From an uncultured bacterium (GTDB lineage: Bacteria > Patescibacteriota > Minisyncoccia > Phycocordibacterales > UBA11359), in the NCBI GenBank assembly GCA_903831815.1, contig CAIKZC010000005.1, forward strand, positions 69 to 64,068: a stretch of 64,000 bases of DNA. Reading direction: 5' to 3'. Within the stretch, counting starts at the first letter, position 1. Each line of letters opens with the position of its first letter. The position numbers and the translations under genes were made by a program. The notes below the pieces were generated by a model, which worked only from the letters and a program-made list of their open reading frames with translations, did no database searches and was not told where the DNA came from. Below, in pieces: positions 4,910 through 50,388 of the stretch.

Positions 4910-5902
4910 ATGTTGGATTTAACGAAATACAAACAGAATAAAAAGACAAGCTATCTTGCCGATAGTTTTGAGGATTTGGAGCGACGTGAAGCCGAACTGG
5001 TGTCTCTTTCTGCCAGCGATCCGTCCATGAAAGAATTAGCCGAAAGTGATTTGGCTGATTTTGCTGTGCAGAAAAAAGAACTTCTCGCTCAAATGGATTC
5101 AATTTTGAAAGCGGACGAAGAGGAAGAGGAGTTTCCCAATGAAATCGTCATGGAAATCCGAGCCGGAGCCGGAGGTGATGAAGCGGCGCTCTTTGCACGC
5201 AAGTTGGCTGACATGTACCAAGCTTTTGCGGTGCTTCAAGGGTGGGGAACTCGTATTTTGGATGAGTCAAAAACCGCTATTGATGGTTACAAGTTGGTCT
5301 CTATAGAAATTCGCGGCAAGGATGTCTACAAAAAGATGCGATACGAAACTGGCGTGCATCGTATTCAACGTGTGCCAGAAACGGAAAAGATGGGTCGCGT
5401 TCATACTTCGACGGCATCGGTCGCTGTGCTTCCAATGCGTAAAAAAATAAAGTATGAAATAAATCCTGCCGATATAGATATCGAATTTTCTCGAGCCGGA
5501 GGCAAAGGTGGGCAGAACGTCAACAAGGTTGAGTCGGCTGTGCGTATTGTGCATAAACCAACTGGTCTTGAGGTGCGCGCTACTACCGAACGTAGTCAGG
5601 GTGCCAACAAAGAGGCGGCTATGAACTTGCTCGGTGCCAAACTTCAAGCTCTTAAAGAAGAGGAAGATGCTAAGAAATATTCTAAGGAGCGTAAGGATCA
5701 AATTGGTACAGGTGACCGTTCGGAAAAAATCCGCACATACAACATTTTACAGGACCGTATCACTGACCATCGGCTCAAAAAATCATGGCACAATATTAGT
5801 GTAATTTTTGAAGGTCAATTAGGTGACATTATCGATTCTCTTGCCTCAGGCAAGCCTGCTGAAGGGTCCTCTGATGAAGATGTTTCTGAAAGCGAAGAAT
5901 AA
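4910..5902 (+). CDS. prfA: Peptide chain release factor 1
   Basis: GGQ motif RAGGKGGQNVNKVESAVRIVHKPTG. RF1-type tripeptide region QRVPETE (PxT-like). Start codon abuts the rpmE stop. Confidence 0.88.
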   Translation: MLDLTKYKQNKKTSYLADSFEDLERREAELVSLSASDPSMKELAESDLADFAVQKKELLAQMDSILKADEEEEEFPNEIVMEIRAGAGGDEAALFARKLADMYQAFAVLQGWGTRILDESKTAIDGYKLVSIEIRGKDVYKKMRYETGVHRIQRVPETEKMGRVHTSTASVAVLPMRKKIKYEINPADIDIEFSRAGGKGGQNVNKVESAVRIVHKPTGLEVRATTERSQGANKEAAMNLLGAKLQALKEEEDAKKYSKERKDQIGTGDRSEKIRTYNILQDRITDHRLKKSWHNISVIFEGQLGDIIDSLASGKPAEGSSDEDVSESEE

Positions 5903-5990
5903 GCCCTTTTGAGGGACTCACGGAAGGCGACGGCCTGAGTGTGAAGGAAATTTCCAGCAGGAAATTTACCTGTGCCCTCAAAAGGGCTTA
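5901..5990 (+). repeat. Palindromic intergenic element, copy 1 (core in B orientation)
   Basis: Outer stem AAGCCCTTTTGAGGG / CCCTCAAAAGGGCTT. Core contains AAATTTCC-AGCA-GGAAATTT and GGCGACGGCC hairpins. The core is the reverse complement of the core at 50300, identical over about 35 nt. Confidence 0.8.
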
Positions 5991-6041
5991 TTCGTAGCTT
6001 TCTGTTGCATTCCTAGGCATTATCTGCTAAAATCGTCGGAT

Positions 6042-6797
6042 ATGTCAGAAATTCAAAACAAAAACGCAACACTAGTGGAATCGATGTTTAAAGCTGGAAG
6101 TCATTTTGCTTACACCCGCGCACGACGCCACCCCACAGCAGCACCCTTCATTTTTGGCCTCAAAAACCGTGTCGAGATTTTCGATTTGGAGAAAACCAGT
6201 GAAAAGTTAGTTGAAGCCAAAGGATTCATCGCTTCTTGCGCACGAACAGGTAAAAAAGTCTTGTTTGTCGGTACCAAGAACGAAGCCCGAGACGCAGTTC
6301 TACGAATCGCTTCAGCTTTGGAAATGCCTTATGTTAACCTCCGATGGATCGGTGGCACTCTCACAAACTTCCCACAAATTCGAAAGAGAATTGATAAATA
6401 TGAGGATCTGATGGCAAAGCGTGAAAAAGGCGAGTTGGTAAAATACACGAAGAAAGAGCGCTTGCTTATCGATCGTGAAATCGCCAAACTTGAAAACTCT
6501 TTTTTAGGAATTGTGTCCATGAAAGAAATGCCGGCTGCCGTAGTGATTGTTGATTCAGAAAAAGAGCACATTGCTTTGGCTGAAATTAAAAAACAAGGTA
6601 TTCCGGTCATCGCTATTTGCGGTTCTGATTGCAATCTAAAAAAAGTTACATATCCTATCCCAGCTAACGACAGCGCAAAGGCTAGCGTTGAATTTCTCCT
6701 AAAAGAGCTGTCAGCTGCGTATACAGAAGGAACGAAAGAAGCGGCAAAAGCAAGAATAACAGAAGTAAAAGTTGCAACAGTCGAAGTTAAAAAGTAA
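6042..6797 (+). CDS. rpsB: 30S ribosomal protein S2
   Basis: N-terminal FKAGSHFAYTRARRHP and VLFVGTK...RWIGGTLTN are S2 signatures. Leaderless or SD-less start. Confidence 0.92.
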   Translation: MSEIQNKNATLVESMFKAGSHFAYTRARRHPTAAPFIFGLKNRVEIFDLEKTSEKLVEAKGFIASCARTGKKVLFVGTKNEARDAVLRIASALEMPYVNLRWIGGTLTNFPQIRKRIDKYEDLMAKREKGELVKYTKKERLLIDREIAKLENSFLGIVSMKEMPAAVVIVDSEKEHIALAEIKKQGIPVIAICGSDCNLKKVTYPIPANDSAKASVEFLLKELSAAYTEGTKEAAKARITEVKVATVEVKK

Positions 6798-6812
6798 TTT
6801 TAAAAAAACTCC

Positions 6813-7394
6813 ATGGTTACACTTGATCAAATCAAGTCACTTAGAGAGGCCACTGGTCTTTCGGTGATGCAAGTTAAAAAAGCACTTGAGGAAGCTGACG
6901 GTGATCCGGCTAAGGCCCTCGCTCTTCTTAAGAAAAAGAGTAAAGATGTTGCCGCTAAAAAAGCCGACCGTAAATTTAATGCCGGCGCTATGGCTGCGTA
7001 TATCCACAACAAAGGTGCCGTTGGTGCCATGGTTGAGCTTTTGTGCGAGACTGATTTCGTTTCAGGTAACGAGGGTTTTCAGAAGCTGGTATATGACATT
7101 GCTTTGCATGTCGCTGCGGCCAATCCGGAGTTCAACACTTTGGCTGATATTACTGATGCAGTCAAAGAATCCACTCGAGAATTGTTCATCAAAGAAGTTG
7201 AAGGAAAACCAAAAGATCTGCAAGAAAAAATCTTGCAAGGCAAACTCGATGCATATTTCAAAGAACGCGTTTTGGCTGAACAAATGTTCGTAAAAAATCC
7301 GGATATCACTATTACAGATTTGATCAATGAATCGATCCACAAGTTCGGCGAGAAGATCGCTGTCGGGCGATTTGTTCGTTTTTCAATAAAATAG
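6813..7394 (+). CDS. tsf: Elongation factor Ts (short form)
   Basis: IKSLREATGLSVMQVKKALEEADGDPAKALALLKKK matches the UBA-like N-terminus of EF-Ts. Gene order rpsB-tsf. Confidence 0.9.
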   Translation: MVTLDQIKSLREATGLSVMQVKKALEEADGDPAKALALLKKKSKDVAAKKADRKFNAGAMAAYIHNKGAVGAMVELLCETDFVSGNEGFQKLVYDIALHVAAANPEFNTLADITDAVKESTRELFIKEVEGKPKDLQEKILQGKLDAYFKERVLAEQMFVKNPDITITDLINESIHKFGEKIAVGRFVRFSIK

Positions 7395-7395
7395 T

Positions 7396-7776
7396 ATGAT
7401 AATCGCACTCGTCATATTGATACTTTCATTTTTGGCGATGACAGCAATGATTATAGCCAAGAATTATGAGTCCAAAGCCGGTCGGCAGGTCTTGGCAGTC
7501 AAAGCTCGTGATTGGACGGAGAAACAGGTACGCCAAAGTGCACATGTTGCGCGGGGCGTAGTGCAAGTGGCGGTCACCAAACATTTTTGGACCGGTTTAT
7601 CGTCATTTTTTTGGCAATCGTTTGTCGAAAAAGTTTGGCGACACCCACGAGTTCAAAATGTAGCCAAAAAAGCCAATGATGTGGTAAGAGGCAAGAAAGA
7701 GATAAAATCCACCGGTCCGGTTTCGTTTTATCTCAAAGATGTAAGCGATTACAAGGAACAAGTGAAGTCGAAGTAG
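7396..7776 (+). CDS. Hypothetical small membrane protein
   Basis: 126 aa with an N-terminal hydrophobic segment. No recognisable motif. Confidence 0.45.
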   Translation: MIIALVILILSFLAMTAMIIAKNYESKAGRQVLAVKARDWTEKQVRQSAHVARGVVQVAVTKHFWTGLSSFFWQSFVEKVWRHPRVQNVAKKANDVVRGKKEIKSTGPVSFYLKDVSDYKEQVKSK

Positions 7777-7834
7777 AAATAGGTTGTTGGTCGGTCAAAA
7801 TTGTGTTATCTTGTTGAAGTTGAAAATAGATATT

Positions 7835-7907
7835 GCCACCTTAGCTCATTCGGTAGAGCGCCACTTTTGTAAAGTGGATGCGCCCAGTTCGAATCTGGGA
7901 GGTGGCT
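7835..7907 (+). tRNA. tRNA-Thr (anticodon UGU)
   Basis: 73-nt cloverleaf. Acceptor GCCACCT/AGGTGGC, D stem GCTC/GAGC, anticodon stem CCACT/AGTGG with loop TTTGTAA (UGU), T arm CCCAG-TTCGAAT-CTGGG. CCA is not encoded. Confidence 0.88.
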
Positions 7908-7970
7908 CAGTAAAGTTCCTACTGTGTATAAAGTACATATCAATACAATCTTTTGGTGTATTTTATATAC

Positions 7971-8390
7971 ATGAAAAAAGAAAGATATTGTGTTGGTTGT
8001 AATAAATTATTGATTGAAAAATACAAAATAAAGTATTGTTCAAATCAATGTCAGATGTTTTATCAGCATAGAAAATGGATAAAATTATGGAAAGCTGGAT
8101 TACTGAAGGGTGATCGGGGAATAACAACAAAAAATATTTCCAAACATCTCCGAGGATATTTAATCGAAAAATTTAAAAATAAATGTTCCGAATGTGGTTG
8201 GGCTAAAAAGCATCCGATCACTGGAATTGTTCCATTGGATATCGAACATGTAGATGGAAATTCTGAAAATAATAATGAAGAAAATTTGAAATTGCTTTGT
8301 CCGAATTGTCATTCTTTAACACAGTTTTACAAAAATTTAAATAGGGGAAAGGGGAGAAAGTGGAGAATAAACAAGTATATCAAAAACTAA
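7971..8390 (+). CDS. HNH endonuclease (free-standing, extremely AT-rich)
   Basis: N-terminal CVGC...C..C zinc finger. IEHVDGNSENNNEENLKLLCPNCH is a textbook HNH/His-Me motif. Lies immediately 3' of tRNA-Thr. Alternative start at 7953. Confidence 0.75.
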   Translation: MKKERYCVGCNKLLIEKYKIKYCSNQCQMFYQHRKWIKLWKAGLLKGDRGITTKNISKHLRGYLIEKFKNKCSECGWAKKHPITGIVPLDIEHVDGNSENNNEENLKLLCPNCHSLTQFYKNLNRGKGRKWRINKYIKN

Positions 8391-8471
8391 AACGTTTTCT
8401 TTTCGTTGTGTTATAATTTCTGCAACAAACGGCTTTAAAAGAACGTGTATTACTAATTAATATTTAAAAAA

Positions 8472-8867
8472 ATGAGTTATCACACAAATATTATTAAGGA
8501 GACGGAGTCTAATAATAATTTCAGACGTGTATTATTTACCGGCCACAAAAGTCAGTTGGTTGTTATGAGTATTCCTACGGGTGGGGAAGTTGGAGAAGAG
8601 ATTCATAAATATACCGAGCAGATACTCTTCTTTCTCTCCGGCACAGGTACAGGGTCTCTTGATGATGAGAAATTTGCCATTGGTGCCGGTGATGTTGTGG
8701 TTGTGACGCCAGGCACGAAACATAATTTCGTGAACACCGGAATAGAAGATTTAAAAATTTATACCGTCTATGCTCCACCAAATCACATCGATGGACGTAT
8801 TCATGCCACCAAAGCTGATGCTGATGCAGATATGGAAGATGAAGCGATAGGAGAGAATGTGCAATAG
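8472..8867 (+). CDS. Cupin domain protein
   Basis: 131 aa. G(X)5HXH-like and GD...G...H motifs of the cupin barrel: HKSQ...GEVGEEIH... and GDVVVVTPGTKHNFVN. Confidence 0.6.
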   Translation: MSYHTNIIKETESNNNFRRVLFTGHKSQLVVMSIPTGGEVGEEIHKYTEQILFFLSGTGTGSLDDEKFAIGAGDVVVVTPGTKHNFVNTGIEDLKIYTVYAPPNHIDGRIHATKADADADMEDEAIGENVQ

Positions 8868-8884
8868 TGCTTCTCGAGTGTCTT

Positions 8885-9553
8885 TTACTTCTTAATACTT
8901 GTTGCACTTGTACTTGATGCGATAGGCAATAGTGGCTTAATTATTTTTTCTACCGCATCGCTCGACATAAAACCGTTATATGTTTTCCCATTTATAATAA
9001 GTGCGGGTAGTGTTGTCGGAATTTTATTGAGGCTGATTAATGTTTTTACGGCCGATAGATCGAGATTATAATCAAAAGTGTAAGTACGAAGACCTGGGTA
9101 TGTATCACGCAGGTATGTCAAAACATAGCCTTGTTTCTGACATTCTTGGCAATCGTTGGCGTAGAAGTAAACAATCGAAACCGGTTTTAGTTTGCATTCC
9201 TTGCCGTATGCGCTCATCAACAAATAATCCTTAATTTGCAAAATGGAGTAATATTTCTTGAGCTGGATCACTTCCGCATTGTCTGTTCCGATTTGAGTTT
9301 CCATTGAGCTTAATCTGCTGCCTAGAGTATCAAGTTCATCTGCCAAGATTGAATCATCCAGTTGGTTGCAGGAAGATTGTTTTAAAATATCGAATTGTGT
9401 TTCTGATGAAAGAAGGTCGATGGCGATCTGGTCTTCGGTGGCTTTGATGTCGGCCGTTTTCTTATTGGCAAAATAATTTGAAAGATAAAATGCGGTGACA
9501 AAAAGCAGAGAAGTAATGATAAAAGTGATTATGTATTTTGAAATATTTTTCAT
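8885..9553 (-). CDS. Membrane-anchored thioredoxin-like (DsbA/TlpA-like) protein
   Basis: N-terminal TM helix. YFYANDCQECQKQG carries a CxxC redox motif. Confidence 0.55.
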   Translation of the reverse strand: MKNISKYIITFIITSLLFVTAFYLSNYFANKKTADIKATEDQIAIDLLSSETQFDILKQSSCNQLDDSILADELDTLGSRLSSMETQIGTDNAEVIQLKKYYSILQIKDYLLMSAYGKECKLKPVSIVYFYANDCQECQKQGYVLTYLRDTYPGLRTYTFDYNLDLSAVKTLISLNKIPTTLPALIINGKTYNGFMSSDAVEKIIKPLLPIASSTSATSIKK

Positions 9554-9575
9554 TTTAATGAATTTATCAATTCTA

Positions 9576-10841: not shown

Positions 10842-10857
10842 ATAGTATACATTTTTC

Positions 10858-10892: not shown

Positions 10893-10921
10893 TTTTGCGC
10901 TATACTTTCACCCATAATCAT

Positions 10922-16302: not shown

Positions 16303-16420
16303 AAGAAAAAATCCAAAGACACTTACAGGGTGCCTTGCGCAGCGCGACTGGCGCGAGCAGAGCGGCCGGCCAGTAGACCGGAACGCGTGCATCCCAAAAG
16401 TGTCGTCGGATTTTTTCTTA
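16303..16420 (+). repeat. Palindromic intergenic element, copy 2 (GC-stem subfamily)
   Basis: Outer arms GAAGAAAAAATCCAAAGACACTT / AAAAGTGTCGTCGGATTTTTTCTT. The core contains GCGCGACTGGCGCG, the reverse complement of the CGCGCCAGTCGCGC hairpin shared with copy 3, and a CCGGTC-TACT-GGCCGG hairpin. Lies between convergent gyrB and the membrane protein gene. Confidence 0.75.
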
Positions 16421-20545: not shown

Positions 20546-20686
20546 GAAAGAAATAAATAAAAACACTAGATAAATAAGTAAAAAGCACTCTCGAAGCACA
20601 CGGAATTTTTCTTACTGAAAAATTCCTTATCCTCGCGCCAGTCGCGCTGCGGAGTGCTTCTGCGAGTGCTTTTTACTTATTTATTT
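20546..20686 (+). repeat. Palindromic intergenic element, copy 3
   Basis: Outer arms AAATAAGTAAAAAGCACTCTCGAAGCAC / GTGCTTCTGCGAGTGCTTTTTACTTATTT. Core hairpin 1 AATTTTTC-TTACT-GAAAAATT, hairpin 2 CTCGCGCCAGTCGCGCTGCG. Lies between convergent surface-protein and thrS genes; the thrS stop overlaps the right arm. Confidence 0.8.
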
Positions 20687-22435
20687 CTATAGAGCTTTGT
20701 CTTTAATTTCCGATTGGAGTTTGGCGAGGGTTTCTTCGACGGTCATTTGACCGAGTTGGCCTTTGGTGCGATGTTCGAGAGCGATCTTTTTAGCTTCAAC
20801 TTCTTTGGCTCCGATGACGATCCAGTACGGCAGTTTTTCAATCTTGGCATTTCGGACTTTTTTACCGAGACCGTCACGAGAGTTATCAAGCTCGGCGCGT
20901 ATACCGACGGCTTTTAGTTTTTCCGTGACTTCGAGCGCAAAATTTAAGAAATCATCAGTGACAGGCAAGACTGCAACTTGAACCGGTGAAAGCCAAAGAG
21001 GGAAGTTGCCGGCAAGGTGTTCTATGAGAGTTGCAGAAAAACGTTCGATGGAACCCATGATGGCACAGTGGATCATAACGATTTGCTCCTTCTTACCTTC
21101 TTCGTTAGTGCAAAAAAGTTTGAAGCGCTCCGGCATGTTGAAGTCGAGCTGAATCGTAGCAACTTGTAGCACTCGGCCGATAGAATCATGAGCGATGAAG
21201 TCAAGTTTTGGTCCGTAGAAAGCGGCCTCACCCGTACCATCTATCCACTCGACACCTCGTTTTTCAATAAGTTTTTTAATGGCATTTTCTGCTTTGTTCC
21301 ACGTTTCTTTTGTTCCTAAATATTTTTCAATGTGAGCCGGATCGTGGCGAGAGAATCTAACTTGAAGATTTGAGAAGCCAAAAGTTTTGTAAAATTTATC
21401 GACAATATCCCAAACGGCGAACATTTCATCTTCTATCTGATTTTCGCGACAGAAAACATGGGCATCATCTTGGGTGATTGAAAGCACGCGTGAAAGTCCG
21501 GAAAGCTCGCCTGATTGTTCGTCGCGATAGACCATCGTCGTCTCGGCATAGCGCTGAGGCATATCTCGGTAACTGCGCATGCTGGAATCGAAGATCTGCG
21601 TATGGTGGGGGCAGTTCATTGGTTTCAAAGCGTACTCATGACCCTCTCGTGTTTTTATTTTAAATAAATCATCGCCATATTTTGCCCAGTGACCCGAAGT
21701 TTCATAAAGAGCGCGCTTCGTGATGTGAGGAATCGTGACTCTTTGATATCCTTTAGCTTTTCGAAGTTCCCAAACGTAATCATTTAAAGCATCGCGCATG
21801 ATTGTGCCTTTTGGAGTCCAGAGTGGCAAACCGGGACCAACCAAATCGGAAAAGACAAAAAGGCCGAGCTCCTTGCCAAGTTTCTTGTGATCACGTTTCA
21901 AAGCTTCCTCTTTCTGAGCAAGGTACGCATCGAGCTCGGCCTTGCTTTCAAAAGCCAAACCGTAAATACGAGTCAACATTTTATTTTTCTCATCACCGCG
22001 CCAGTAAGCCCCGGCCACACGGTCTAGTTTGAAAGATTCGGGATCGATAGTTTGGGCGTCTTCCACGTGTCCTCCTCGACAGAGATCAGTAAATCTTCCG
22101 GAAGTATAGACCGTAACTTTTTCGCCTTTGGCAATAATTTCTTCAATGAGCTCAAGCTTGTAAGGATTATTTTTGAAAAGTTCACGAGCTTCGTCTGCGC
22201 TGATTTCTTTGCCTTCAAAAGTTTTCCAATCTTTGAGAGTGTCACGCATTTTCTTTTCTATTTTGGACAAATCTTTATCGGAAATCGGTGTGGCAAATTC
22301 AAAGTCATAATAAAAACCATTATCGACAGCAGGACCGATAGTGTTTTTAGTTTCAGGCCAAAGTCGTTGAACGGCGGCAGCCAAAAGGTGGGCGAGTGAG
22401 TGGCGAATAGACTCCATTTCTTGATGTGTTTTCAT
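20687..22435 (-). CDS. thrS: Threonyl-tRNA synthetase (no N-terminal TGS domain)
   Basis: HxxxH...CxxxH editing/second-domain motifs (IRHSLAHLL), class II catalytic motifs (FRDEQSGELSGLSRV, GTGEAAFYGPKLD) and a C-terminal anticodon-binding domain. Confidence 0.9.
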   Translation of the reverse strand: MKTHQEMESIRHSLAHLLAAAVQRLWPETKNTIGPAVDNGFYYDFEFATPISDKDLSKIEKKMRDTLKDWKTFEGKEISADEARELFKNNPYKLELIEEIIAKGEKVTVYTSGRFTDLCRGGHVEDAQTIDPESFKLDRVAGAYWRGDEKNKMLTRIYGLAFESKAELDAYLAQKEEALKRDHKKLGKELGLFVFSDLVGPGLPLWTPKGTIMRDALNDYVWELRKAKGYQRVTIPHITKRALYETSGHWAKYGDDLFKIKTREGHEYALKPMNCPHHTQIFDSSMRSYRDMPQRYAETTMVYRDEQSGELSGLSRVLSITQDDAHVFCRENQIEDEMFAVWDIVDKFYKTFGFSNLQVRFSRHDPAHIEKYLGTKETWNKAENAIKKLIEKRGVEWIDGTGEAAFYGPKLDFIAHDSIGRVLQVATIQLDFNMPERFKLFCTNEEGKKEQIVMIHCAIMGSIERFSATLIEHLAGNFPLWLSPVQVAVLPVTDDFLNFALEVTEKLKAVGIRAELDNSRDGLGKKVRNAKIEKLPYWIVIGAKEVEAKKIALEHRTKGQLGQMTVEETLAKLQSEIKDKAL

Positions 22436-22643: not shown

Positions 22644-23291
22644 ATGGCTACCAAAACCATAGGTGTGGAGCAAAGGTTCGAATTGCTGGCTAAACTGGCA
22701 GCTCACCTTGATTGGGACTCGATTGACTCAAGGTCTGTCCAAGAGATAATCGATCATCCGGCCATTCCCGGCCAGCAGTTTACTCTCTTCCTCAAGAACG
22801 GTTGTAGATTTTCGTTTGGCGACCTAAAGATCGCTCCCGCGCCCTTTGATCCAGTCGCTTTCATTAGTAAAGGATGGAATATCGTCCTCGAAGAACATGA
22901 CAAGATGACAGGAGGTCTCGTTGAAGTTGATTTTAATCAGGTCGACTTCGAGGACTGTCTCGAGGAAGGTGAGACCATGATCACTGGTGAAGTGAAACTG
23001 ACGCGTCTCAAAGAGCGTAAGCGGATCCGTTACGGCGCCGTCACTTTTATGGGTCTTCTGAACGATTATCAGACTCGGGAAGTGAACAGTGTTCTTGAAA
23101 CGCTATTCCGCACCAAAAGTATTGTCCACCTCGATTTCTTTGGTGATGTTCTGCTTGGCCCAAACGGTAACCGATGCGTGTTGTGTCTCGATAGGGTCAG
23201 TGGTGGTCGGTGGATTGGTACCTACCGCCCCCTCGCGATTCATTGGTATCGTCGGTTTCTAACCCCCGTTTGTTCGCAAGTCAGTGTTTGA
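22644..23291 (+). CDS. Hypothetical protein, GC-rich cassette B (paralog of cassette C)
   Basis: 215 aa, GC-enriched, strong SD GAAAGGAGGTAGCTA-ATG. Shares FD..F...GW.IV.EH and CV.CL..R..G..W.GTYR.L...W blocks with C. Confidence 0.6.
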   Translation: MATKTIGVEQRFELLAKLAAHLDWDSIDSRSVQEIIDHPAIPGQQFTLFLKNGCRFSFGDLKIAPAPFDPVAFISKGWNIVLEEHDKMTGGLVEVDFNQVDFEDCLEEGETMITGEVKLTRLKERKRIRYGAVTFMGLLNDYQTREVNSVLETLFRTKSIVHLDFFGDVLLGPNGNRCVLCLDRVSGGRWIGTYRPLAIHWYRRFLTPVCSQVSV

Positions 23292-23353
23292 CGCATTCCA
23301 ACGCGTAATTGTAAAAAATGGAAAAGCCCCTGCACTTCAAGTGCGGGGGTTTA
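23291..23353 (+). repeat. Cassette-boundary repeat R, copy 1 (contains terminator hairpin)
   Basis: ACGCATTCCAACGCGTAATTGTAAAAAATGGAAAAGCCCCTGCACTTCAAGTGCGGGGGTTTA recurs almost identically at 24181-24243. A degenerate copy (GTAAAAAGCACCCTGCAAGTATCTTTTAC) lies at about 22485-22514 upstream of B. The similarity extends about 25 nt into the 3' coding ends of B and C. Confidence 0.8.
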
Positions 23354-23564
23354 TTATTTTCGGATACCTTTACAAATACCATCAAATAATGTATAATATA
23401 CCAAGATTGAACGTTGAAAAACTTGCAAGTGGTCATAGCCAAAAGGTGCGGAAAGGCTCAATAATTCGGCATTTATTGGCTATGACTACCAATGTGGTAC
23501 GTCCTCTAGCAAAAACTTGTCAGCGTGTCCGTATTACGGGCGTGCTAAAACAAAGGAGACTGTC

Positions 23565-24179
23565 ATGAAGGCGGCAACAGCTGTCAACGGCGGTCCAGAT
23601 GAAGTTCGGGAAGAGGGTCGTCGGTTGCCCTATGAATTGCAGGGGCAACTGCATGCCAAGTTTGTGGAGTGTCTGAACCAGATAAAAGCGGGAAATTTTA
23701 GCGCGCAATATTTTGGGAATCTCCTGCAGAAAACAACTGAAGGGGTAAGGTTCGTCGAAGAGTACATCATTGATTTCGACACTGCACCATTCTGTCCAGA
23801 AGGCTGGATTGTGGTTGAACACAAACCATGTGGAACATGGAAGTTTAATCCCGAGCATGTTATACCCCATCTTTTTCCAAGACAAGAGGGTAGTGGGAAG
23901 ATTTTGGGTATAAATCTCCGCAAAGACCTCGCTCTGATGCCAGTCGTGAATGCCAACTTGCTGGATCATTTCTACCTGAAGAACCCGGAGTTAATCCCCA
24001 AAGAATGGGAATGGAAAGAGGTCTACTTCTGGGGGACTATCTACGAGGATGAGTTTTACAAGCTGTGCGTTCGCTGCCTTACACATCGAGACGGCATGTG
24101 GAAGTGGGGATACAGACATCTAACTTCTTTTTGGGGGTACAACGCTCCTGCTCTTGTCTTTGCAAGTTTCAGTGCCTAA
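23565..24179 (+). CDS. Hypothetical Trp-rich protein, GC-rich cassette C (paralog of B)
   Basis: 205 aa from ATG 23565, with SD AAGGAGACTGTC-ATG. Promoter/leader homologous to that of B (CTTTACAAATA...AATGTATAATA...TTGAAAAACTTGC). Confidence 0.6.
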   Translation: MKAATAVNGGPDEVREEGRRLPYELQGQLHAKFVECLNQIKAGNFSAQYFGNLLQKTTEGVRFVEEYIIDFDTAPFCPEGWIVVEHKPCGTWKFNPEHVIPHLFPRQEGSGKILGINLRKDLALMPVVNANLLDHFYLKNPELIPKEWEWKEVYFWGTIYEDEFYKLCVRCLTHRDGMWKWGYRHLTSFWGYNAPALVFASFSA

Positions 24180-24180: not shown

Positions 24181-24243
24181 ACGCATTCCAACGCGTGATT
24201 GTAAAAAATGGAAAAGCCCCTGCACTTCAAGTGCGGGGGTTTA
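24181..24243 (+). repeat. Cassette-boundary repeat R, copy 2
   Basis: 62/63 identical to copy 1; the hairpin AAAAGCCCCTGCAC-TTCAA-GTGCGGGGGTTT is identical. Confidence 0.8.
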
Positions 24244-24259
24244 ATATTTATATATTAAG

Positions 24260-24368
24260 AAAAACAAAAACACTAGTTTGAGGGGGTCCGAGCCGCGACT
24301 GGCGGCGAGATTCAGGAAATTTCTAGCAAGAAATTTCCGTACCCGAACAACTAGTGTTTTTGTTTTTC
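24260..24368 (+). repeat. Palindromic intergenic element, copy 4 (core in B orientation)
   Basis: Outer arms AAAAACAAAAACACTAGTT / AACTAGTGTTTTTGTTTTTC. The core reverse complement contains AAATTTCT-TGCT-AGAAATTT and GCCGCC-AGTC-GCGGC hairpins. Lies between cassette C and the convergent dnaE. Confidence 0.8.
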
Positions 24369-24371
24369 TTC

Positions 24372-27300
24372 TTATTGAACTTTCTTGATGATCTCCGCGA
24401 GGACGCTCATGGCGCCGTTGCGTTCGGTAATTTTTCCTTTGATGGCGATGCAGGTGTCGGCGACTAAAATATCCTTGTATTTTTCAAAAGTTTTTGGAAA
24501 GGCGACGGCCTCCATGCTGCCGCTTTTGTCGGTAATTTTTATGAAAGCCATTTCACTGTCGTTTTTGGTTTTGATGACGCGAATCGTTTCAATGACACCG
24601 CAAATAATCGTGACGACGCCGGCTTTGAGAGTTTCTTTGCATTTGGCGATTTGTCCAATCGATTTTACTTTTTCAGTGTAAAGATCGAGAGGGTGACCGG
24701 AAATGTACAAACCAAGCAACTCTTTTTCCCAAGCTAATTTATCGGTCATGGTGGCTTCCGGCATTTTTTCAAGTTTGAGCCCTGTTGAAGCGCTACTTAA
24801 TCCCAAAAATAGGGAATCCTGCGGTGCGGCACCTTTTTCTTTGTTGTATGAAAGTATTCCTTCAATATTGCCGAGCAATTGACCACGTTCGCCGAAAGCG
24901 TCCATGGCACCTGCTTTGATCAGAGCTTCCAAAGATTTTTTGTTGAGATTGCGATCCTTGATACGATCGAGGAAATTTTCGAGTGATGAAAATTTGCCAC
25001 CTTTTTTTCGTTCGGCAATGATGAAACCTGAAATACCTTCGCCAAAGTTTTTAATCGTGTTGAGTCCGAAGCGGATCACATTTTTCTTTACAATTGTGCC
25101 GTCCGTTTTTGCAACTTCTTTTTTCAAAATCGTAAACTCTTCATGACTTTGGTTGACGTCGGGTGGCAAAACTTCGATACCCATACGTTTACATTCGGCG
25201 ATAGATTCGGCAACTTTTTCCACGTCACCTGATTCGGCTGAAAGTACGGCGGCCATATATTCGCCTGGGTGATTGGCTTTGAGGTAGGCGGTGATGTAAG
25301 CGACGCGACCATAGGAAACGGAGTGAGCTTTGTTAAAACCGTAGGCAGCAAATGGCTCGATCCAGAGCCAAATTTCCTGAGCTTTTTTCTCAGGCCAACC
25401 GGAATGTTTGATACAACCTTGAATGAATTTTTCTTTTTGCTTAGCCATTTCCTCCGGAATTTTTTTACCGACAGCCTTGCGGAATTTATCAACTTCACCC
25501 CAACTGTAGCCGGCGAGTTTGTTGGCCATCATGAGCAAGTCGTCCTGATAAACGAGAATACCGTAAGTTTTTTCCAAAATCGGTTTAAGAGCGGGGTCGA
25601 GATATTTAATTTTTGAATTATCGTGTTTGCGGGCAATGTAATCGGGAATAAATTGAATTGGGCCAGGACGATAAAGCGCGACCATGGCGTTGATATCATG
25701 AATGGTTGTTGGTTTGAGTTCAACGAGGAATTTGGTCATACCACTACCGTTGAGTTGGAAAGTGTCGGCGGTTTCGCCGCGAGCCAACATCGCGAAAGTT
25801 TTTTTGTCAGTGACCGGAATTGTGTCGACATCAAGTTGGATTTTTTCAGTGATGGCAATTAAACGAATCGCATCGGCAATAATTGAAAGGTTTTTAAGTC
25901 CAAGAAAGTCGAATTTTAGAAGACCGGCTTCTTCGACCGAATACATATCATATTGAGTGATGATCTTGTTTTCGCCTTTTGGATCGAACTGAAGGGGAGT
26001 GAAATCCATCAAGTCGGTCGGGGCAATCACGACGCCGGCGGCGTGAATACCAACGTGACGAGCGGAGCCTTCGATCTTCATAGCCATGTCAACAATGGTT
26101 TTGACTTCTTCACTTTCGTCGTACATTTTTTTGAGTTCGGGGGCTTCTTCGAGAGCGCGCTCTAGGGTCATCGGGAAACCTTGCGAGCCCATTGGCACGG
26201 CTTTAGCGATTGTGTCACTGAGTTGTATCGCGTACCCTAGAGCGCGCGCCGCATCTCGCACAGACCCGCGAGCCGCCATCGTTCCGAAAGTTCCGATTTG
26301 CGCCACTTTGTCGTGTCCGTATTTTTGACGAGCATATTCCACCATTTCGTCACGTCGATCATCGGCAAAGTCCATATCAATATCGGGCGCCGATGGACGT
26401 TCAGGGTTCAAAAATCTTTCGAAAGGAATTTGATATTCAAGCGGGTCGATATTGGTAATACCGGAAAGATATGTGACCATCGAACCGGAAACCGAACCTC
26501 TAATGTTCGAGAGGATTCCGTGTGTGCGGGCATAGTGCAACAAGTCGGCCACGACCAAAAAGTAAGGTGAATAACCTTTGTTTTTAATAACTTCCAATTC
26601 ATATTCAACACGTTTCAGGATGTCTTCAGTTTTTTGAACATTTCTTTTTTCAAATCCGGCATAAACAGTATCACGCAAAGCTTCATCATACGTTTTGCCT
26701 GCCGGCGCTTCAATGGCAGGAAAAACCCATGAACCAAGTACGATCTCCAAATTGCATTTGTCGACGATTTTCTGGACGTTTTCAATCGCTTCCGGCGTAT
26801 CTTTAAAACTTTCTTCCATTTGTTCCGGAGATCTAAAAGAAAAATCTTCTTCGTCGTCACCCCGATCGCTCGGATCATTGTTGGATTGCACGGAAAGCAA
26901 AGTCTGACGAGCTTTGCGGTCTTCGGGATTCATATAATAGATCTCATGCGCGGCAATCAGCGGAACACTTTTAGCTTTACTCAATTTCTTGAGGTCTTTC
27001 ATCAACGTGTCGTGATTTTCCAATTCCGGATGATTGGTGATCTCGAGGTAAAAATCATCACCAAAAGTTTTTTTGTAAAAGTCCAAACGTTCTTCCGCTT
27101 TTTCATGATCGGACATGCGGAGTGCTGTCGTAATGTCGCTACCGAGTGCCGGAGCGATTGCAATAATTCCTTCGCGATATTTTTCAAGCAACTCTCTGTC
27201 TACGCGAGGTTTGTAATAAAAACCTTCGAGGTGAGAATAAGTGACGATTTTAATTAAATTTTTGTAACCGATTGCATCTTTGGCGATCAGAATAAGACGG

Positions 27301-27560: not shown

Positions 27561-27613
27561 GGGTTCATTATACTATCAATTTTCAAAAAACTAAAAAGTA
27601 ACATTTGCTTCCA

Positions 27614-27709
27614 AAAATACTGTCTGCAGGGCACGGATAAATTTTTGCTAAAATTTTCCTCGTGTTCGCGCCGGTCGCGCTCACAAGTCCCTGCAGACAG
27701 TACTTTTGT
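27614..27709 (+). repeat. Palindromic intergenic element, copy 5 (core in A orientation)
   Basis: Outer arms AAAATACTGTCTGCAGGG / CCTGCAGACAGTACTTTT. Core GGGCACGG-ATAAATTTT-TGCT-AAAATTTTCC...TCGCGCCGGTCGCGCT...AGTCCC. Lies between the dnaE start and cassette D. Confidence 0.8.
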
Positions 27710-32703: not shown

Positions 32704-32711
32704 GTGTATAT

Positions 32712-32820
32712 AAAATAAAAAATGTCGATTTCCGAGTGCCTTGCGCAGGCCGACGGGCCGAGCGGAGCAATCCGCCAGCAGGCGGATATGCGTGCATCTC
32801 GGAAACGACTTTTTTATTTT
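32712..32820 (+). repeat. Palindromic intergenic element, copy 6 (GC-stem subfamily)
   Basis: Outer arms AAAATAAAAAATGTCGATTTCCGAG / CTCGGAAACGACTTTTTTATTTT. The core reverse complement contains ATCCGCC-TGCT-GGCGGAT and GGCC-CGTC-GGCC, with the same loops and different stems as in other copies. Confidence 0.8.
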
Positions 32821-32836
32821 ATGCTATATTTAATGT

Positions 32837-35231: not shown

Positions 35232-37271
35232 TTAAACTAATTCACAATCGATCGTTTTGCGGTCTAGGTCGGTTTTAGTGATCTTGAATTTTACTTTATC
35301 CCCGAGAGTGTAACGTTTTTTGGTTTTGCGGCCGACAAGAGCATATTGTTTTTCTTGAAGTTCATAATAGTCATCGGAAAGAGCGCGAACACTGACCATA
35401 CCTTCGGCTTTGGTCTCGTCGTCTTCAACATAGACACCCCATTCGGTGACGCCAGTAATGGTGCCTTGCAGAAGTTTGCCGATTTTGTCACTCATAAATT
35501 CGACTTGTTTGTATTTTATGGATGAACGCTCGGCGTCGGCGGCGGCGATTTCTTTTTCAGTGATGTGAACAGCGGTGCGTTGATAGTTAGCAAGTTCGTT
35601 CGGATCAATTTTGGTGCCGTCGAGATGACTTTCGAGCAGGCGGTGTACAAGCAAGTCGGCGTAACGACGAATTGGGGAAGTGAAATGCGTATAATATTTA
35701 AAAGCCAAACCGAAATGACCGATATTTCTGGTCGAATAAATCGCTTTGGCCATCGAGCGAATAGCGGCAGTTTTGATGAGAGATTCTTGGGTTGTGCCGG
35801 TAACTTGCTTGAGTAATTTGCTGATATCGTCAGCGGTGATTTTACTGCCGTGAGGCATATGAAAACCGAGCGCTCGAGCAAATACGGAAAGGTTGGCGAG
35901 ACGGTCTTGATCAGGCAAATCGTGAATACGATAAATGAAAACAGGATCGTGACCGATTTTTTTGGCGACATGTTTATCGATGAATTCGGCCACTTCGCGG
36001 TTGGCCAGCAACATATATTCCTCGACCAGTTTGTGGGTATCTAGTCGTTCTTTTTTAAAAACGCGAAGTGGCTTGCCGTCTTTGTCTAGTTCAAATTTAA
36101 CTTCCTCTGATTCAAAATCAATAGCACCGGCCGCGAACTTTTTGGTTTGCAAAATTTTGGCGATTTTGTTTAGGGTGGTGAGAGGCGTGGCGAACAATTG
36201 CGCAGCCGCCGGCGTATTTCCAACCTGGTCTTTTTTATTATTTCCACTTTTTGGACTACCCTTGTGACCATCCAGAATATCTTGCGCACCCTCATAGCTG
36301 AAACGATTATTGGAATTGATAACGGTTTTGCCAAACCAGCGTTTGTGAATTTTTGCGTTTGCATCAATTTCAAAGATGGCGGAGAAGGCGAGTTTGTCTT
36401 CGTTGGGATTTAGACTGCAGAGGTCGTTGGAGAGAATTTCCGGCAACATTGGAATAGTGCGGTCAACTAAATAAACGGAAAAGCCGCGATTTTTCGCTTC
36501 TTCATCAAGTGCTGTTCCAGGACGCACATAATGTGAGACATCGGCAATGTGCACGCCGATCTCATACATTTTTACGCCGTTTTGTTCACCAAGTTCTTTG
36601 AAAGAAATAGCATCATCAAAGTCTTTAGCGTCAGCCGGGTCAATGGTGCAGGTGAGGGTATTACGCAAGTCTTTGCGTTTTGCGATATCGGATTGCGGAA
36701 TCGGTTTCTCGCGTTTTTCGATTGCGGCCGCTTCCTGCTCAACTTTTTCCGGATATTTTGATTCGAAACCTTTATCCAAAATAATGGATTGCATTTCAGC
36801 TTCGTGATCACCTTTTTTTCCGAGCAAGACGAGAATTTTTCCTTCCGGATCTCGGGTTGGATCGGTCCAATTAATGATTTGAACGAGAGCTTTGTTGCCG
36901 TCTAGATCCGCTGAAGTTTTGTCAGAGGGGGATTCGGTCACAACAATATTTTTATACATTTTTCGATTGTCCGGAATGAGGATCGGTTTCGGGCCGCTCG
37001 CATTCAGAACACCAACGAAAGTGCGCTTGGACTGTTTGAGTATTTTTGTCACCTCGCCCTGCTCGCGGCCCTTAATTTTCCCCGGCAAAATCTTAATTTC
37101 CACTTCATCTTTATCCAGTGCCAAATGTAACTTTTCATTCTGTATTTCAATATCTTCCTCGCGACCTGCCACTTCCAAAAAGCCGATACCTTTGGAATTG
37201 ATGTCAATAATACCTATATAGGCATTTTTCTCGTGTTTTTGGGGTTTTTGAGGCCCTTTTTTGTTATGCAT
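35232..37271 (-). CDS. rnr: Ribonuclease R / RNase II family 3'-5' exoribonuclease
   Basis: RNB catalytic block (HIADVSHYV...LVDRTIPMLPE...LCSL) and a C-terminal S1 domain. Leaderless-type start. Confidence 0.88.
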   Translation of the reverse strand: MHNKKGPQKPQKHEKNAYIGIIDINSKGIGFLEVAGREEDIEIQNEKLHLALDKDEVEIKILPGKIKGREQGEVTKILKQSKRTFVGVLNASGPKPILIPDNRKMYKNIVVTESPSDKTSADLDGNKALVQIINWTDPTRDPEGKILVLLGKKGDHEAEMQSIILDKGFESKYPEKVEQEAAAIEKREKPIPQSDIAKRKDLRNTLTCTIDPADAKDFDDAISFKELGEQNGVKMYEIGVHIADVSHYVRPGTALDEEAKNRGFSVYLVDRTIPMLPEILSNDLCSLNPNEDKLAFSAIFEIDANAKIHKRWFGKTVINSNNRFSYEGAQDILDGHKGSPKSGNNKKDQVGNTPAAAQLFATPLTTLNKIAKILQTKKFAAGAIDFESEEVKFELDKDGKPLRVFKKERLDTHKLVEEYMLLANREVAEFIDKHVAKKIGHDPVFIYRIHDLPDQDRLANLSVFARALGFHMPHGSKITADDISKLLKQVTGTTQESLIKTAAIRSMAKAIYSTRNIGHFGLAFKYYTHFTSPIRRYADLLVHRLLESHLDGTKIDPNELANYQRTAVHITEKEIAAADAERSSIKYKQVEFMSDKIGKLLQGTITGVTEWGVYVEDDETKAEGMVSVRALSDDYYELQEKQYALVGRKTKKRYTLGDKVKFKITKTDLDRKTIDCELV

Positions 37272-40050: not shown

Positions 40051-40409
40051 AACAACGTTGATAGTTTAGAACTACCGTAGTGAGACAAAGGACTCACTGC
40101 GGTTTCTTTTTTATAAAATAGCCTAAAAATCCCCATTTTAATGACACTTTAACCTGTGGAAATCCTAATTAATACGCAGTATTACTAGGTGAATCCCTTG
40201 TGGATAAGAGGGTGATTGACAAATATTTCGTTTAGGTATACACTACCGCCACGTGTGCAAGATTTAGTTTTGGCTGGATCACACTGTTTTTAGATTGCGG
40301 CTAATAGAAAAGCAACCTTGCAAAAGCAGACTCGTTAAAATTATCAGAGAAAAATAGACCATCCCCGCACAGGTGGCCCATTTTTCGCGTTTTAATAAAT
40401 TATTAATAT

Positions 40410-43601: not shown

Positions 43602-43608
43602 AACTACC

Positions 43609-47283: not shown

Positions 47284-47319
47284 AGAACACGTAGCTCGTA
47301 GATTTCTCCTTAATTCTAA

Positions 47320-49035
47320 ATGAGCACTGTCGACACAATTAAAGATCGCTTGTCCATAACCGACATTGTTGGCACGTATGTTAAGCTTGAAAAAGCGGGC
47401 GCCAATTTGAAAGGTTTGTGTCCTTTCCATCAAGAAAAAACTCCGTCATTTATGGTTTCTCCTGCGCGTGGATCGTATTATTGTTTTGGTTGCGGGGCCA
47501 AAGGCGATATCTTTTCTTTTGTTGAACAGTTTGAGGGGCTCGATTTTATGGGAGCTCTGAAAGTGTTGGCTGACAGGGCGGGGGTGGAGATTGAGAAGCA
47601 AAATCCAGCCGAGAAAACCGAACGTGAAAGGCTATTCCAGATTATGGATTTTGCGTCACTTTTTTACCACAAAGGTTTGTCGGAAAATGTGGCAGCTATT
47701 GAATATTTGAAAAAAAGAGGTGTGGAAGTGGGAACTATTCGCGCATGGCGCCTGGGTTATGCTGTGCCGGAGTGGCGAACACTTTTCAATTATTTGATCT
47801 CAAAAAAATTTAGTTCTCAAGAAATGTTAAAAGCAGGATTGGTAAAACCTGCCGATAAAGGTTTTTACGATACTTTCCGTAGTCGCATTATTTTTCCGAT
47901 TGGTAATAGCGCCGGAAGGGTTGTGGCGTTTTCCGGTCGCATTTTTCCTGTTGATGATACGGCGGCCAAATATCTGAACTCGCCGGAAACTTCGCTTTTC
48001 AACAAATCGGCGGTGTTGTATGGATATGATAAAGCGAAGTTTGAAATTCGCAAGAAAAATACGGCGATATTAGTTGAAGGGCAGATGGATCTAATATTGT
48101 CGCATCAGGTTGGTATTACTAATACCGTGGCAACTTCCGGAACCGCATTTACCGATCTGCATGCCGGACTCATCAAGCGTTTTGCCGAGAAATTAATAAT
48201 TTGTTATGACGGTGACAAGGCTGGAGTATCGGCCGCGCTGCGCGCGGCCGTCGTGGCCCTCCGCTCCGGACTCGACGTGCATATTGTGCGTTTGCCTGAT
48301 GACAAAGATCCGGCCGACATGTGTATAGAAAATAAACAAGCTTACTTGGATTTTTTGTCCGGTGCCGAACATGTCATTGATTTTGCCCTCGGCACGGCAC
48401 TTCGCGCTTCAACTGACAAGCGTCAGCAAGAAAAAAACATTGTCGCCAGCGTTTTGCCTTATGTAAAAGTATTGGAAAGCGCGGTTGAACAAGGACATTT
48501 CATTGCTCGCATTGCACAAGCTAGCCGAATTCGTGAAGATGACTTGCGAGCGGAACTTCGAAAATTACCGATGCCGATTGCTAATGCGTCAATCAGCAGC
48601 GTTTCCGGAAAAACGCCAAATACTGTAAATAACGCAACATCAGAGCGGCCTATCCGTGAGCAGGTTGTAGTTCGCCAGCTTTTTGGTATCATGTTTTTGT
48701 TGGAACAAAAAGAAGAAAAGAAAAAGGTTGATGAAATAAAAAACGAGCTCGTGCGTATAGAAGGCAAGGAAGGGCTCGAAGTTTTGATGAAGCGCTACAG
48801 TAATCAGAAAGAAGAATTGCTTTTTGAAACCGAAAGGGCATATAATTCACCTGATTTTATTGAAACGGACATTAAAGAACTTTTGAAGAGATTGGAGATA
48901 GAGAGACTAGAACGGCGATATGCCGAAGCTACCGATACGCTGGCCCAAGCTGAACGTGAACATGATGAAGGGAAGACCGCCGAACTTCTCGAAACATGCA
49001 AAGAAATTTCAAAAAGACTTTCAATACTTAAATAA
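47320..49035 (+). CDS. dnaG: DNA primase
   Basis: Zinc ribbon [11 protein letters not shown]...CFGCG, RNA polymerase core motifs and Toprim ([14 protein letters not shown]). Confidence 0.9.
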
Positions 49036-49040
49036 AACAT

Positions 49041-50267
49041 ATGAAAAAGAAAAACGGATCAAAGAAAATAAAAAAGACCAAAGCGGCAAAACCGAAAGCG
49101 ATAAAGCGCATAAAAAAATCTGCACGCACGCACGCTATTTTTCGTAAAGATCCGGCAGCCAAAAAAGCGGCTGGCCCCATCAAGAAATTTACCGTGGCCG
49201 AAAAAGCCAAAAACATGGACGATAAGGCTAATCGACTTTTGTTAAAAGGTCGCGATCGCGGTTTTGTGACTTATGATGAAATTTTGAAAGAATTTCCAAC
49301 TATTGAGGATGATATTGTTTTTCTAGATGATTTGTATCAAAAATTTAATGCCGCCGGAATCGATGTTTTGGAAGGAGGAGGACTTCTTGATGTTTCCGAT
49401 GAAATTTTGGCTAAAAAATTAGCCAAGGATTCTTCGTATGACTCGATTCAGATGTATTTGAAAGAAATTGGACAATATCCACTTCTAAGTGGTAGCGAGG
49501 AAAAAGAATTGGCCAAACGAATCGAATTGGAAGATGAAGATGCCAAGACTTTGCTTATGCGCGCCAACTTACGTCTCGTGGTTTCGATTGCCAAAAAATA
49601 TGTTGGCCGAAGTCCGGATTTAACATTACTTGATTTGATTCAGGAAGGAAATTTAGGTTTGCATAAAGCGGTAGATAAATTTGATTGGACCAAAGGTTAT
49701 AAGTTTTCAACTTATGCTACTTGGTGGATTCGCCAAGCTATCACTCGCGCACTAGCCGATCAGTCTCGTACGATTCGAGTGCCGGTACACATGGTTGAAA
49801 CGATCGCTAAATACAAGCAAGTTTTTCGTCGTTTGTCGCAAGATTTGGGACGAGATCCATTGCCTGAGGAAATTGCCAATGAAATGGGTGTTGATGTTGA
49901 TAAAATTTATACTATTGAAAAAATCGATCAAAGTACTGTCTCTTTGGAGAGCAAAGTTGGTGATGATGATGATGACAAGGGATCTACTTTGGGTGATTTT
50001 GTAGCTGATGACAAGATCCTTTCGCCTGATCAAGAATCATCACGAAGAATTATTGCCGATCAGGTCAAAGAAATTTTAGGTGATTTGTCAGAAAAGGAAC
50101 GCGAGATTTTGGAACTTCGACACGGACTCACTGATGGCATTCAGCATACACTTGAGGAAGTAGGGAAGAGATTTGGGGTTACGCGTGAACGTATTCGACA
50201 GATTGAGGCGAAGGCGCATGAGAAGATAAGACAGCATGATAAGATAAATAGACTGAGGAACTATTAG
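49041..50267 (+). CDS. rpoD: RNA polymerase primary sigma factor (sigma70 family)
   Basis: Region 1.2 ([12 protein letters not shown]), region 2 ([17 protein letters not shown]...[13 protein letters not shown]) and region 4 ([20 protein letters not shown]). Confidence 0.93.
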
Positions 50268-50268
50268 A

Positions 50269-50388
50269 GAAAAAGCAAACCAAAAGAGCAGTTTTAAGGG
50301 CACAGGTAAATTTCCTGCTGGAAATTTCCTTCCAACTCGCGCCGTCGCGCTCCGTTAGTCCCTTAAAACTGCTCTTTTGGTTTGCTTC
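50269..50388 (+). repeat. Palindromic intergenic element, copy 7 (core in A orientation)
   Basis: Outer arms about 29 bp perfect: GAAAAAGCAAACCAAAAGAGCAGTTTTAAGGG / CCCTTAAAACTGCTCTTTTGGTTTGCTTC. Core GGGCACAGGT-AAATTTCC-TGCT-GGAAATTT-CC...CTCGCGCCGTCGCGCT...AGTCCC. Confidence 0.85.

Follow-up and report, generated by a model that had tools for sequence, protein, structure and literature searches.

A family of palindromic repeats occupies spacers between genes in a 64,000-nt stretch of DNA (hereafter, the window) from an uncultured bacterium of the Patescibacteriota (GenBank assembly GCA_903831815.1, contig CAIKZC010000005.1, positions 69 to 64,068 of the forward strand). The seven elements found there are probably copies of a non-autonomous mobile palindromic DNA repeat of Parcubacteria-group bacteria of the candidate phyla radiation (CPR). 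Comparison with related contigs shows that close relatives have gained and lost copies, that elements at hot spots undergo replacement or inversion, that copies accumulate just after stop codons and in other tolerated spots, and that the copied unit is usually the whole hairpin including its arms, with a median length of ~115 nt. The family is widespread in Parcubacteria-group (CPR) bacteria and apparently undescribed, and literature searches for an earlier report of such repeats in CPR bacteria found none in a limited literature collection. Besides an intron-split 16S gene, the window contains ordinary housekeeping genes, and the closest named homolog of its DnaE protein (87% identity) is labelled Candidatus Taylorbacteria (Parcubacteria group, Patescibacteria).

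The seven copies, all of them intergenic, are listed below with their conserved cores, the strand that carries the orientation named A (defined further below), their score with R1, a covariance model built from 15 copies, and their surroundings.

c1: 5897-5993 (core 5908-5981), + strand; 69.5 bits, fold -56.4 kcal/mol, z -8.5; between the release-factor gene and rpsB, co-directional.
c2: 16304-16418 (core 16325-16398), + strand; 56 bits; between gyrB (+) and a convergent gene (-).
c3: 20567-20689 (core 20590-20664), - strand; 66.8 bits; between a PKD-repeat gene (+) and thrS (-), convergent.
c4: 24252-24375 (core 24277-24350), + strand; 60.2 bits; between an open reading frame (ORF) of 220 amino acids (+) and dnaE (-), convergent.
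c5: 27612-27708 (core 27623-27696), - strand; 68.4 bits; in the spacer between the 5' end of dnaE (-) and a 178-amino-acid ORF (+), divergent.
c6: 32709-32823 (core 32731-32803), + strand; 66.6 bits; between a DUF7282 gene and the SMC gene, co-directional.
c7: 50272-50388 (core 50294-50367), - strand; 72.6 bits; downstream of rpoD, with co-directional genes on both sides.

A preliminary description, made from the letters of the window, had reported at least seven elements, and both a reading of the intervals and R1 confirmed seven at these places. R1 detected exactly seven copies (56-73 bits, E 1.6e-17 to 2.2e-23) both with default filters and with filters off. Since it found just these and the next full-length match in the window scored 11 bits (a 24-nt partial match on the reverse strand, inside c4, reached 17 bits), the count is seven rather than "at least seven". 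A strict structural pattern matched five of the seven elements, compared to two matches over 30 shuffled windows. Folding of each whole element against its own shuffles gave z-scores of -5 to -12 for RNA, and DNA folding of both strands gave -8 to -11.6. The outer stems of the elements are the longest inverted repeats of the window, and the family fills ~1.2% of this 64-kb housekeeping region (7 copies per 64 kb). No Rfam family fits the elements: a scan of the whole window at Rfam gathering thresholds returned just the 16S rRNA and one tRNA, and a permissive scan of 5800-50500 (E ≤ 10) gave zero matches on any element. Hammerhead, twister, hatchet, pistol and other small ribozymes were among the families for which the elements did not reach the gathering threshold.

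Several candidates were rejected. A hand-written structural descriptor missed most true copies because of bulges and produced ~0.8 false matches per shuffled window (8 in 5), and the covariance model was used in its place. Readings as a k-turn, a hammerhead, a motif like that of the signal recognition particle RNA or group II intron domains D5/D6 were dropped, since the motif spacing is unsuitable and Rfam is negative. Three intragenic inverted repeats of the window (I15, I21 and I24) were considered as decayed copies and dismissed, since none has the core motifs and the DnaE sequence around I21 is conserved and unbroken. The genes thrS (21860-21943), dnaE (26155-26247) and that of RNase R (35989-36072) contain inverted repeats 14-17 nt long, separated by spacers of 50-65 nt. 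They are commoner than chance predicts and are without the family core, and the one in dnaE falls in conserved, unbroken protein sequence.

Each window element is an imperfect palindrome, or hairpin, of ~97-123 nt. All seven share a common fold, as RNA or as single-stranded DNA of either strand, in which P1, the long outer stem, leads to a three-way junction that bears two inner hairpins. The first junction arm consists of a short helix (P2a), an asymmetric internal loop (5'-(S)SA / GA-3') and P2b, a G+C-rich hairpin of 4-5 bp with the loop GAC(N)G. The second arm is the P3 hairpin, 6-10 bp long with the loop AGCA or AGUA and frequently a bulged A. We named A the strand that reads P2a-P2b and then P3, which is the + strand in c1, c2, c4 and c6 and the - strand in c3, c5 and c7. 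In c1 the + strand thus reads ..SSA-(P2b, loop GACG)-GAG..(P3, loop AGCA)..GU.., while the A orientation of c7, on the - strand, is antisense to rpoD. The opposite strand presents the loops TGCT or TACT (TTACT in c3) and C(N)GTC, as had been noted before, and the reported reverse complementarity of the c1 and c7 cores is exact across 36 nt. The core is richer than the two hairpins of the preliminary description, being a three-way junction with the additional helix P2a and the conserved SSA/GA internal loop. The outer stem of c3 holds a second internal loop (GCA/GA), and c2 and c6 both belong to the subfamily with a GC-rich P3.

Conservation in the core was analyzed with copies from the window and from relatives, the latter being pieces (8-23 kb) of metagenome contigs or of contigs from metagenome-assembled genomes (MAGs), numbered with the prefix L. 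In 31 distinct copies, pairing reaches 99.2% in P2b and 97.1% in P3, and 13 of the 14 base pairs of these two hairpins have undergone double-sided changes. The same copies gave a covariation score of 0.564, against 0.203 for shuffles (0 of 500 reached the observed value) and 0.05-0.13 for slid controls. Stem pairing is maintained by compensatory change, as had been claimed for the window copies. Among 67 aligned copies, the unpaired positions are near-invariant at the G-C-A and G-A of the internal loop, the GAC of the P2b loop, the AGCA of the P3 loop and a 3' GU, and the A immediately 5' of P3 is present in every one of them. The conserved portion of the element is a three-way junction of ~75 nt, and the arms are variable.

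These outer arms had been described as perfectly complementary and different in every copy. Their complementarity is near-perfect instead, ranging from 21 nt at 100% to 59 nt at 73%, and they do vary between the window copies, although paralogous copies in relatives share them. The arms of c1 (5888-5915 and 5975-6002) are complementary at 26 of 28 positions (93%). One of them enters the release-factor coding sequence by 15 nt (the last codons and the stop, ORF end 5902) and is mirrored downstream, which suggests either growth of the palindrome into the adjacent DNA or an ORF whose end lies within the element.

Paralogous copies at unrelated loci reveal what is copied. L063 and L080 carry identical 54-nt cores and have ~138 nt in common within unrelated flanks. 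The copies at L026:20569 and L031:18407 also have identical 54-nt cores, with ~119 nt in common and unrelated flanks, and the related copy of L069 (43 of 53 core positions) has ~112 nt in common with them, again between unrelated flanks. Paralogs at unrelated loci have 20-45 nt of arm in common and, by inspection, the arm differences within a paralog set are matched by complementary changes in the opposite arm. The ends of an element are inverted repeats within one copy but differ between copies, so that conservation is central. Automated paralog boundaries disagree with those set by eye, and no claim on flank complementarity or target duplication rests on them.

Five copies lie inside genes of relatives, all in-frame: two in Dus (L034 and L054), one in a PGM/PMM-family enzyme (L075) and two in TsaD (L101 and L106). 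The Dus copies add ~27 residues that are absent from the L042 ortholog, and the arms of L034 and L054 have diverged yet remain paired within the coding sequence. The L075 copy occupies the linker between domains I and II of the enzyme, and those of L101 and L106 lie in the same protein region in opposite orientations. Arms of ~21-34 nt are present in four of these copies, whereas that of L101 is nearly core-only. In all five cases intact domains continue downstream of the insertion, and the in-frame copies appear to occupy tolerated surface or linker regions of housekeeping proteins. A composite peptide query for further proteins with in-frame copies returned 189 candidates with one weak TsaD match, the word index used being unsuited to short peptides.

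Comparison of orthologous sites demonstrates gain, loss and turnover of the elements. The conserved flanks that surround c3 at the 3' end of thrS enclose a plain terminator in L031 and L033, and the window site is longer by ~110-115 bases. Copy c4 is absent downstream of dnaE in L031, L032 and L033, where the neighbouring gene differs. In the spacer upstream of dnaE, the site of c5, the window, L032 and L033 have an element and L031 has none, and the spacer upstream of rpoB contains an element in L026 only. Downstream of rpoD, all four relatives (L026, L027 and L028-L030, RpoD 94% identical) are occupied in the same orientation as c7 by members of other subfamilies, with three different subfamilies represented. 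The site downstream of gyrB is also occupied in L031, with the core flipped relative to gyrB compared to c2. Two further comparisons were discarded. The rpoB upstream spacer could not serve as a source of insertion boundaries, because the upstream genes differ between relatives, and for the same reason alignment of the dnaE 3' site past the stop codon is unreliable.

Other sequences adjoin the elements at some of these sites. In relatives, variable accessory genes (ORF6N/KilA-N-like, RhuM and Fic) are found next to elements (L026 11502-12970, L028 11492-13192, L031 8628-8897, L032 4374-4901, L033 3778-4377), some inside the ribosomal-protein gene cluster and some downstream of rpoD, where a different small ORF is found in the window. 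Genes may insert preferentially at element sites. Beside c3, a solitary half-arm at 20551-20569 (AAATAAATAAAAACACTAG) has the 11-mer AAAAACACTAG in common with the 5' arm of c4 (24264-24274). It resembles one half of the plain thrS terminators of L031 and L033 and may be what is left of a previous hairpin at this site. The 29-nt plain terminator hairpin AAGCCCCTGCACTTCAAGTGCGGGGGTTT is present in two identical copies, at 23324-23352 and 24214-24242, ~890 bp apart and the second next to c4, which may reflect tandem duplication of the small genes at 22644-24179.

The family extends to other CPR genomes. An A/T-rich P3 hairpin, GGAAATTTCT-AGCA-AGAAATTTCC, occurs as an exact 22-mer in 25 contigs from ~22 MAGs of a species-level genome collection, nearly all titled as Patescibacteria (Paceibacterota, Taylorbacteria, Nomurabacteria and Parcubacteria, with some labelled Saccharibacteria), and has 0 matches in viral contigs. 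In about half of these contigs the same hairpin stands at the P2b position, and P3 then holds a different hairpin (loop UGCA, UUGCAA or GACG). Because the 22-mer is found at either inner arm, the hairpins are swappable modules around a constant junction with constant loop nucleotides. A metagenome scan with the P2 module detected more than 120 loci, and ~35 of the 80 examined carry full elements, largely from groundwater and sediment samples. Clustering is common, with two neighbouring copies in opposite orientation separated by 57-110 nt or with three copies within ~3 kb (for example L021 5409-5614, L051 3603-3858, L004 1179-1333 and L113 640-3822). A partial match covering one hairpin (L012 2771-2846, 34.5 bits) lies on a contig titled Methanosarcinales archaeon. 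Methanogens are hosts to some Patescibacteria, and the contig may be a CPR one binned in error.

Searches of the neighbourhood for an enzyme that could mobilise the repeat were negative. All-against-all clustering of the 507 ORFs flanking elements at 59 element-bearing loci (~520 kb) produced syntenic housekeeping clusters only, with no recurrent transposase-like gene. A domain scan of 20 window ORFs detected no transposase, and no RAYT gene came up in the limited sample of element flanks. The lack of a recurrent transposase-like gene is the first of several points that weigh against a mobile repeat. Conserved terminal inverted repeats are absent among the copies, and no direct target duplication of at least 4 bp was present at the ends defined by three paralog comparisons, where boundaries in A/T-rich sequence are fuzzy. 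The near-invariance of the unpaired core across several Parcubacteria-group candidate phyla, together with covarying stems, also counts here, because it would be expected from selection on each copy, whereas a purely selfish miniature inverted-repeat transposable element (MITE) would decay. The rpoD, gyrB and dnaE 5' sites stay occupied across relatives, which could mean a host function. Finally, the paralog and intragenic evidence comes from metagenome contigs of relatives and not from the window, and the orientation tally given below depends on heuristic ORF calls.

If the elements are mobile DNA, the conserved tip with its three-way junction would be the part recognised in extruded or single-stranded DNA. 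This tip is made up of the internal loop SSA/GA, the two hairpin loops (GAC(N)G and AGCA), a bulged A, the 3' GU and the invariant A that precedes P3. Recognition would be by the machinery that copies the element, possibly an enzyme acting in trans, and would explain why compensatory changes preserve the structure. The arms may stay Watson-Crick paired through selection for the hairpin or through arm-to-arm correction by template switching at quasi-palindromes, and the c1 arm in the release-factor coding sequence is compatible with outward growth of the palindrome. A more specific and decidedly speculative proposal, which we regard as possible although doubtful, is that the three-way junction serves as the recognition or priming structure of a novel, Parcubacteria-wide hairpin-copying mobility mechanism that uses neither terminal inverted repeats nor target duplications. 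Strand-switch synthesis by a putative single-strand DNA enzyme would then keep the arms and perhaps extend them into flanking DNA.

The preliminary description had offered, as one interpretation, a family of structured 3'-untranslated-region or terminator RNA modules that bind a common factor. In a fuller form, this would be a cis-acting RNA at mRNA 3' ends, a terminator or stabiliser whose junction tip binds a common protein or RNase and in which each copy is selected. High conservation of the unpaired nucleotides, strong covariation of the stems, the position of the majority of copies after stop codons and the persistent occupation of the rpoD and gyrB sites in relatives would all suit such a module. 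In the window, most copies are at operon ends; c5 is between divergent genes and not at a 3' end. T-runs follow or lie within the 3' arm, by eye, in six of the seven window copies (c2-c7). The RNA fold is slightly more stable in the A orientation, also for six of seven, and G-U pairs in the arms are more frequent on strand A (30) than on strand B (17), next to 976 Watson-Crick pairs. However, the elements show no orientation bias relative to transcription or replication. With ORFs called heuristically, 7 copies are in sense, 12 in antisense, 12 between convergent and 5 between divergent ORFs. GC skew is positive along the whole window, which is therefore a single replichore, and the copies are divided between its strands (4 on +, 3 on -).

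Other features of the copies also speak against a 3'-untranslated-region RNA signal. P2b and P3 have hardly any G-U pairs, and overall such pairs do not clearly favour either strand, which argues against an RNA-only constraint, because such a constraint would tolerate wobble pairs on the functional strand. The in-frame copies in Dus, PGM and TsaD, which occur in both orientations, indicate that the elements are not a sense-strand RNA signal, and the five copies inside genes and the five in divergent spacers cannot be required terminators. The framing of the arms by an A-run and a T-run, previously likened to bidirectional terminators, is visible in the window, and a strict test detected A/T runs at arm ends in 4 of 7 window copies, but in about one third of copies elsewhere (17 of 51). 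A terminator consensus scan gave mild enrichment (30 vs 21.6 ± 4.5), and, as mentioned above, no Rfam family matches. A sense-strand 3'-end RNA module is thus unlikely as an account of the family, while it is plausible that the intergenic copies of the window double as bidirectional terminators or 3'-end stabilisers, a role that is secondary and not family-defining.

The second interpretation put forward earlier was insertion of a small mobile core (~65-80 nt) into the loops of older terminator hairpins, with the outer stems being host terminators. The preliminary description had looked to plain terminators at orthologous sites as its test, and these were seen at the thrS 3' end in L031 and L033. 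This account also agrees with the nearly core-only copy of L101 and with the rpoD site, at which the outermost arm bases (AGCAAA...TTTGCT) are common to three genomes while the interior is entirely different. By eye, moreover, the flanks just beyond the shared paralog units pair over 3-7 bp, but this complementarity vanishes under the automated boundary definition. Against the account, paralogs share whole hairpins (~112-138 nt), arms included, at unrelated loci, c4 stands beside, and not inside, the separate intact plain terminator at 24214-24242, and the arms of four of the five intragenic copies lie where no terminator can pre-exist. An event within an older hairpin, either insertion or replacement, fits the rpoD site alone; core insertion is not the general rule, and we consider it very improbable as the origin of the family. 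Of the earlier interpretation, a repeat family or mobile element with selected structure therefore stands, and general insertion of cores into terminators and a sense-specific RNA module do not.

The weakest alternative, and in our judgement a most improbable one, is a host-functional DNA site, either a cruciform or a double-stranded site for a nucleoid, replication or uptake protein, spread and homogenised by gene conversion: the irrelevance of orientation, the Watson-Crick-only pairing, the folding of both strands and the exact P3 22-mer that occupies either inner arm in MAGs titled under several CPR candidate phyla would fit it. However, a fixed site does not sit easily with in-frame copies and with the rapid replacement of subfamilies, close relatives differ in the density and the positions of the elements, and we know of no protein partner.

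The layout of a mobile palindromic repeat with a conserved centre differs from those of several known classes, and the previously noted mismatch with classic MITEs, repetitive extragenic palindromic (REP) sequences and attC sites was borne out for the layout of each. Classic MITEs have conserved terminal inverted repeats and direct target duplications, whereas in the present family the ends vary between copies, no target duplication was seen at the fuzzy paralog-defined ends and conservation is central. A REP sequence is conserved over its entire 20-40 nt, has a GTAG or CGTC tag at the base of its hairpin and is mobilised by RAYT transposases. Like REP, bacterial interspersed mosaic elements (BIME) and REPIN, the family described here consists of extragenic palindromes in both orientations with compensated hairpins, in which a single-stranded DNA hairpin is presumed to be recognised in trans. 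Unlike REP, it has the CGTC sequence in a loop on one strand only, ~75 conserved nt with variable arms, and copies inside genes too. Integron attC sites combine conserved outer boxes (R and L; R''/R') with a centre that varies, and they keep one orientation with respect to the cassette ORF. They are imperfect palindromes of similar size at gene 3' ends, are recognised as folded single strands and can branch in the centre, but the present family is the opposite in all three respects, with variable outer sequence, a conserved centre and mixed orientation. One report (PMC3733652) gives CGTC as the tag of one REP superfamily, and the P2b loop reads CGTC on strand B, the strand opposite to A.

The closest analogues appear to be Rickettsia palindromic elements (RPEs), along with SPRITE, Correia and REPIN repeats, and RPEs seem the nearest in behaviour. 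RPEs are abundant palindromes of ~100-150 bp with intergenic copies and in-frame coding insertions in housekeeping proteins and no known transposase (PMC10969869, PMC1166351). The repeats described here resemble them in their reduced genome, high copy number, in-frame invasion of housekeeping genes (five cases) and lack of a detected transposase, and also as palindromes of ~115 nt median length with both intergenic and in-frame coding copies. This likeness is one of behaviour only, in an unrelated phylum, and we do not claim membership; unlike RPEs, the present family is defined by its conserved three-way-junction centre, covarying swappable hairpins and copy-variable arms. SPRITE, BOX and RUP of Streptococcus pneumoniae, Correia elements and ERIC are small non-coding repeats at gene ends that form stable transcript hairpins. 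Among them, SPRITE is terminator-like, and the invertible Correia elements are cleaved by RNase III. Inversion of Correia elements and insertion of BOX, RUP and SPRITE into one another have been described (PMC10969869, PMC1166351). The A/T-framed arms of the window copies, the flipped core at gyrB and subfamily replacement at rpoD are reminiscent of SPRITE, Correia and ERIC.

Mobile DNA is usually described as scarce in the small genomes of CPR bacteria. In the present case one family makes up ~1.2% of a housekeeping region, recurs in MAGs titled under several CPR candidate phyla and is present also inside essential genes. Its layout, with a conserved covarying junction in the centre and hypervariable paired arms, is the reverse of that of known bacterial MITEs, and the junction provides a defined structural handle for finding the copying agent. 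Should hairpin copying prove true, the family could be a tractable model for how RPE-type repeats spread. In practical terms, assemblies can break at these hairpins, which can also give rise to spurious ORFs, lengthen annotated proteins by ~27-34 residues and pass for terminators or non-coding RNAs in CPR annotation.

Two further features of the window were observed. Its 16S rRNA gene (1-2628) is matched by Rfam at 1-739 and 1973-2628 and is split by an insertion of ~1.23 kb, within which lie an ORF for a LAGLIDADG protein (1042-1764) and a perfect inverted repeat of 24 bp (814-837 / 985-1008). The 16S is followed by no 23S rRNA within the window, and the 16S gene appears to be unlinked from 23S. 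Upstream of rpoB, a leader of ~200 nt is almost invariant between the window (~40200-40409), L026 (~1180-1379) and L028 (~1140-1339), and the sequence further upstream is divergent. This candidate cis-regulatory leader includes a hairpin (..CCATCCCCGCACAGGTGG..), and by eye the form that the hairpin takes in L026 (CGGAGTACGGG) appears compensated.

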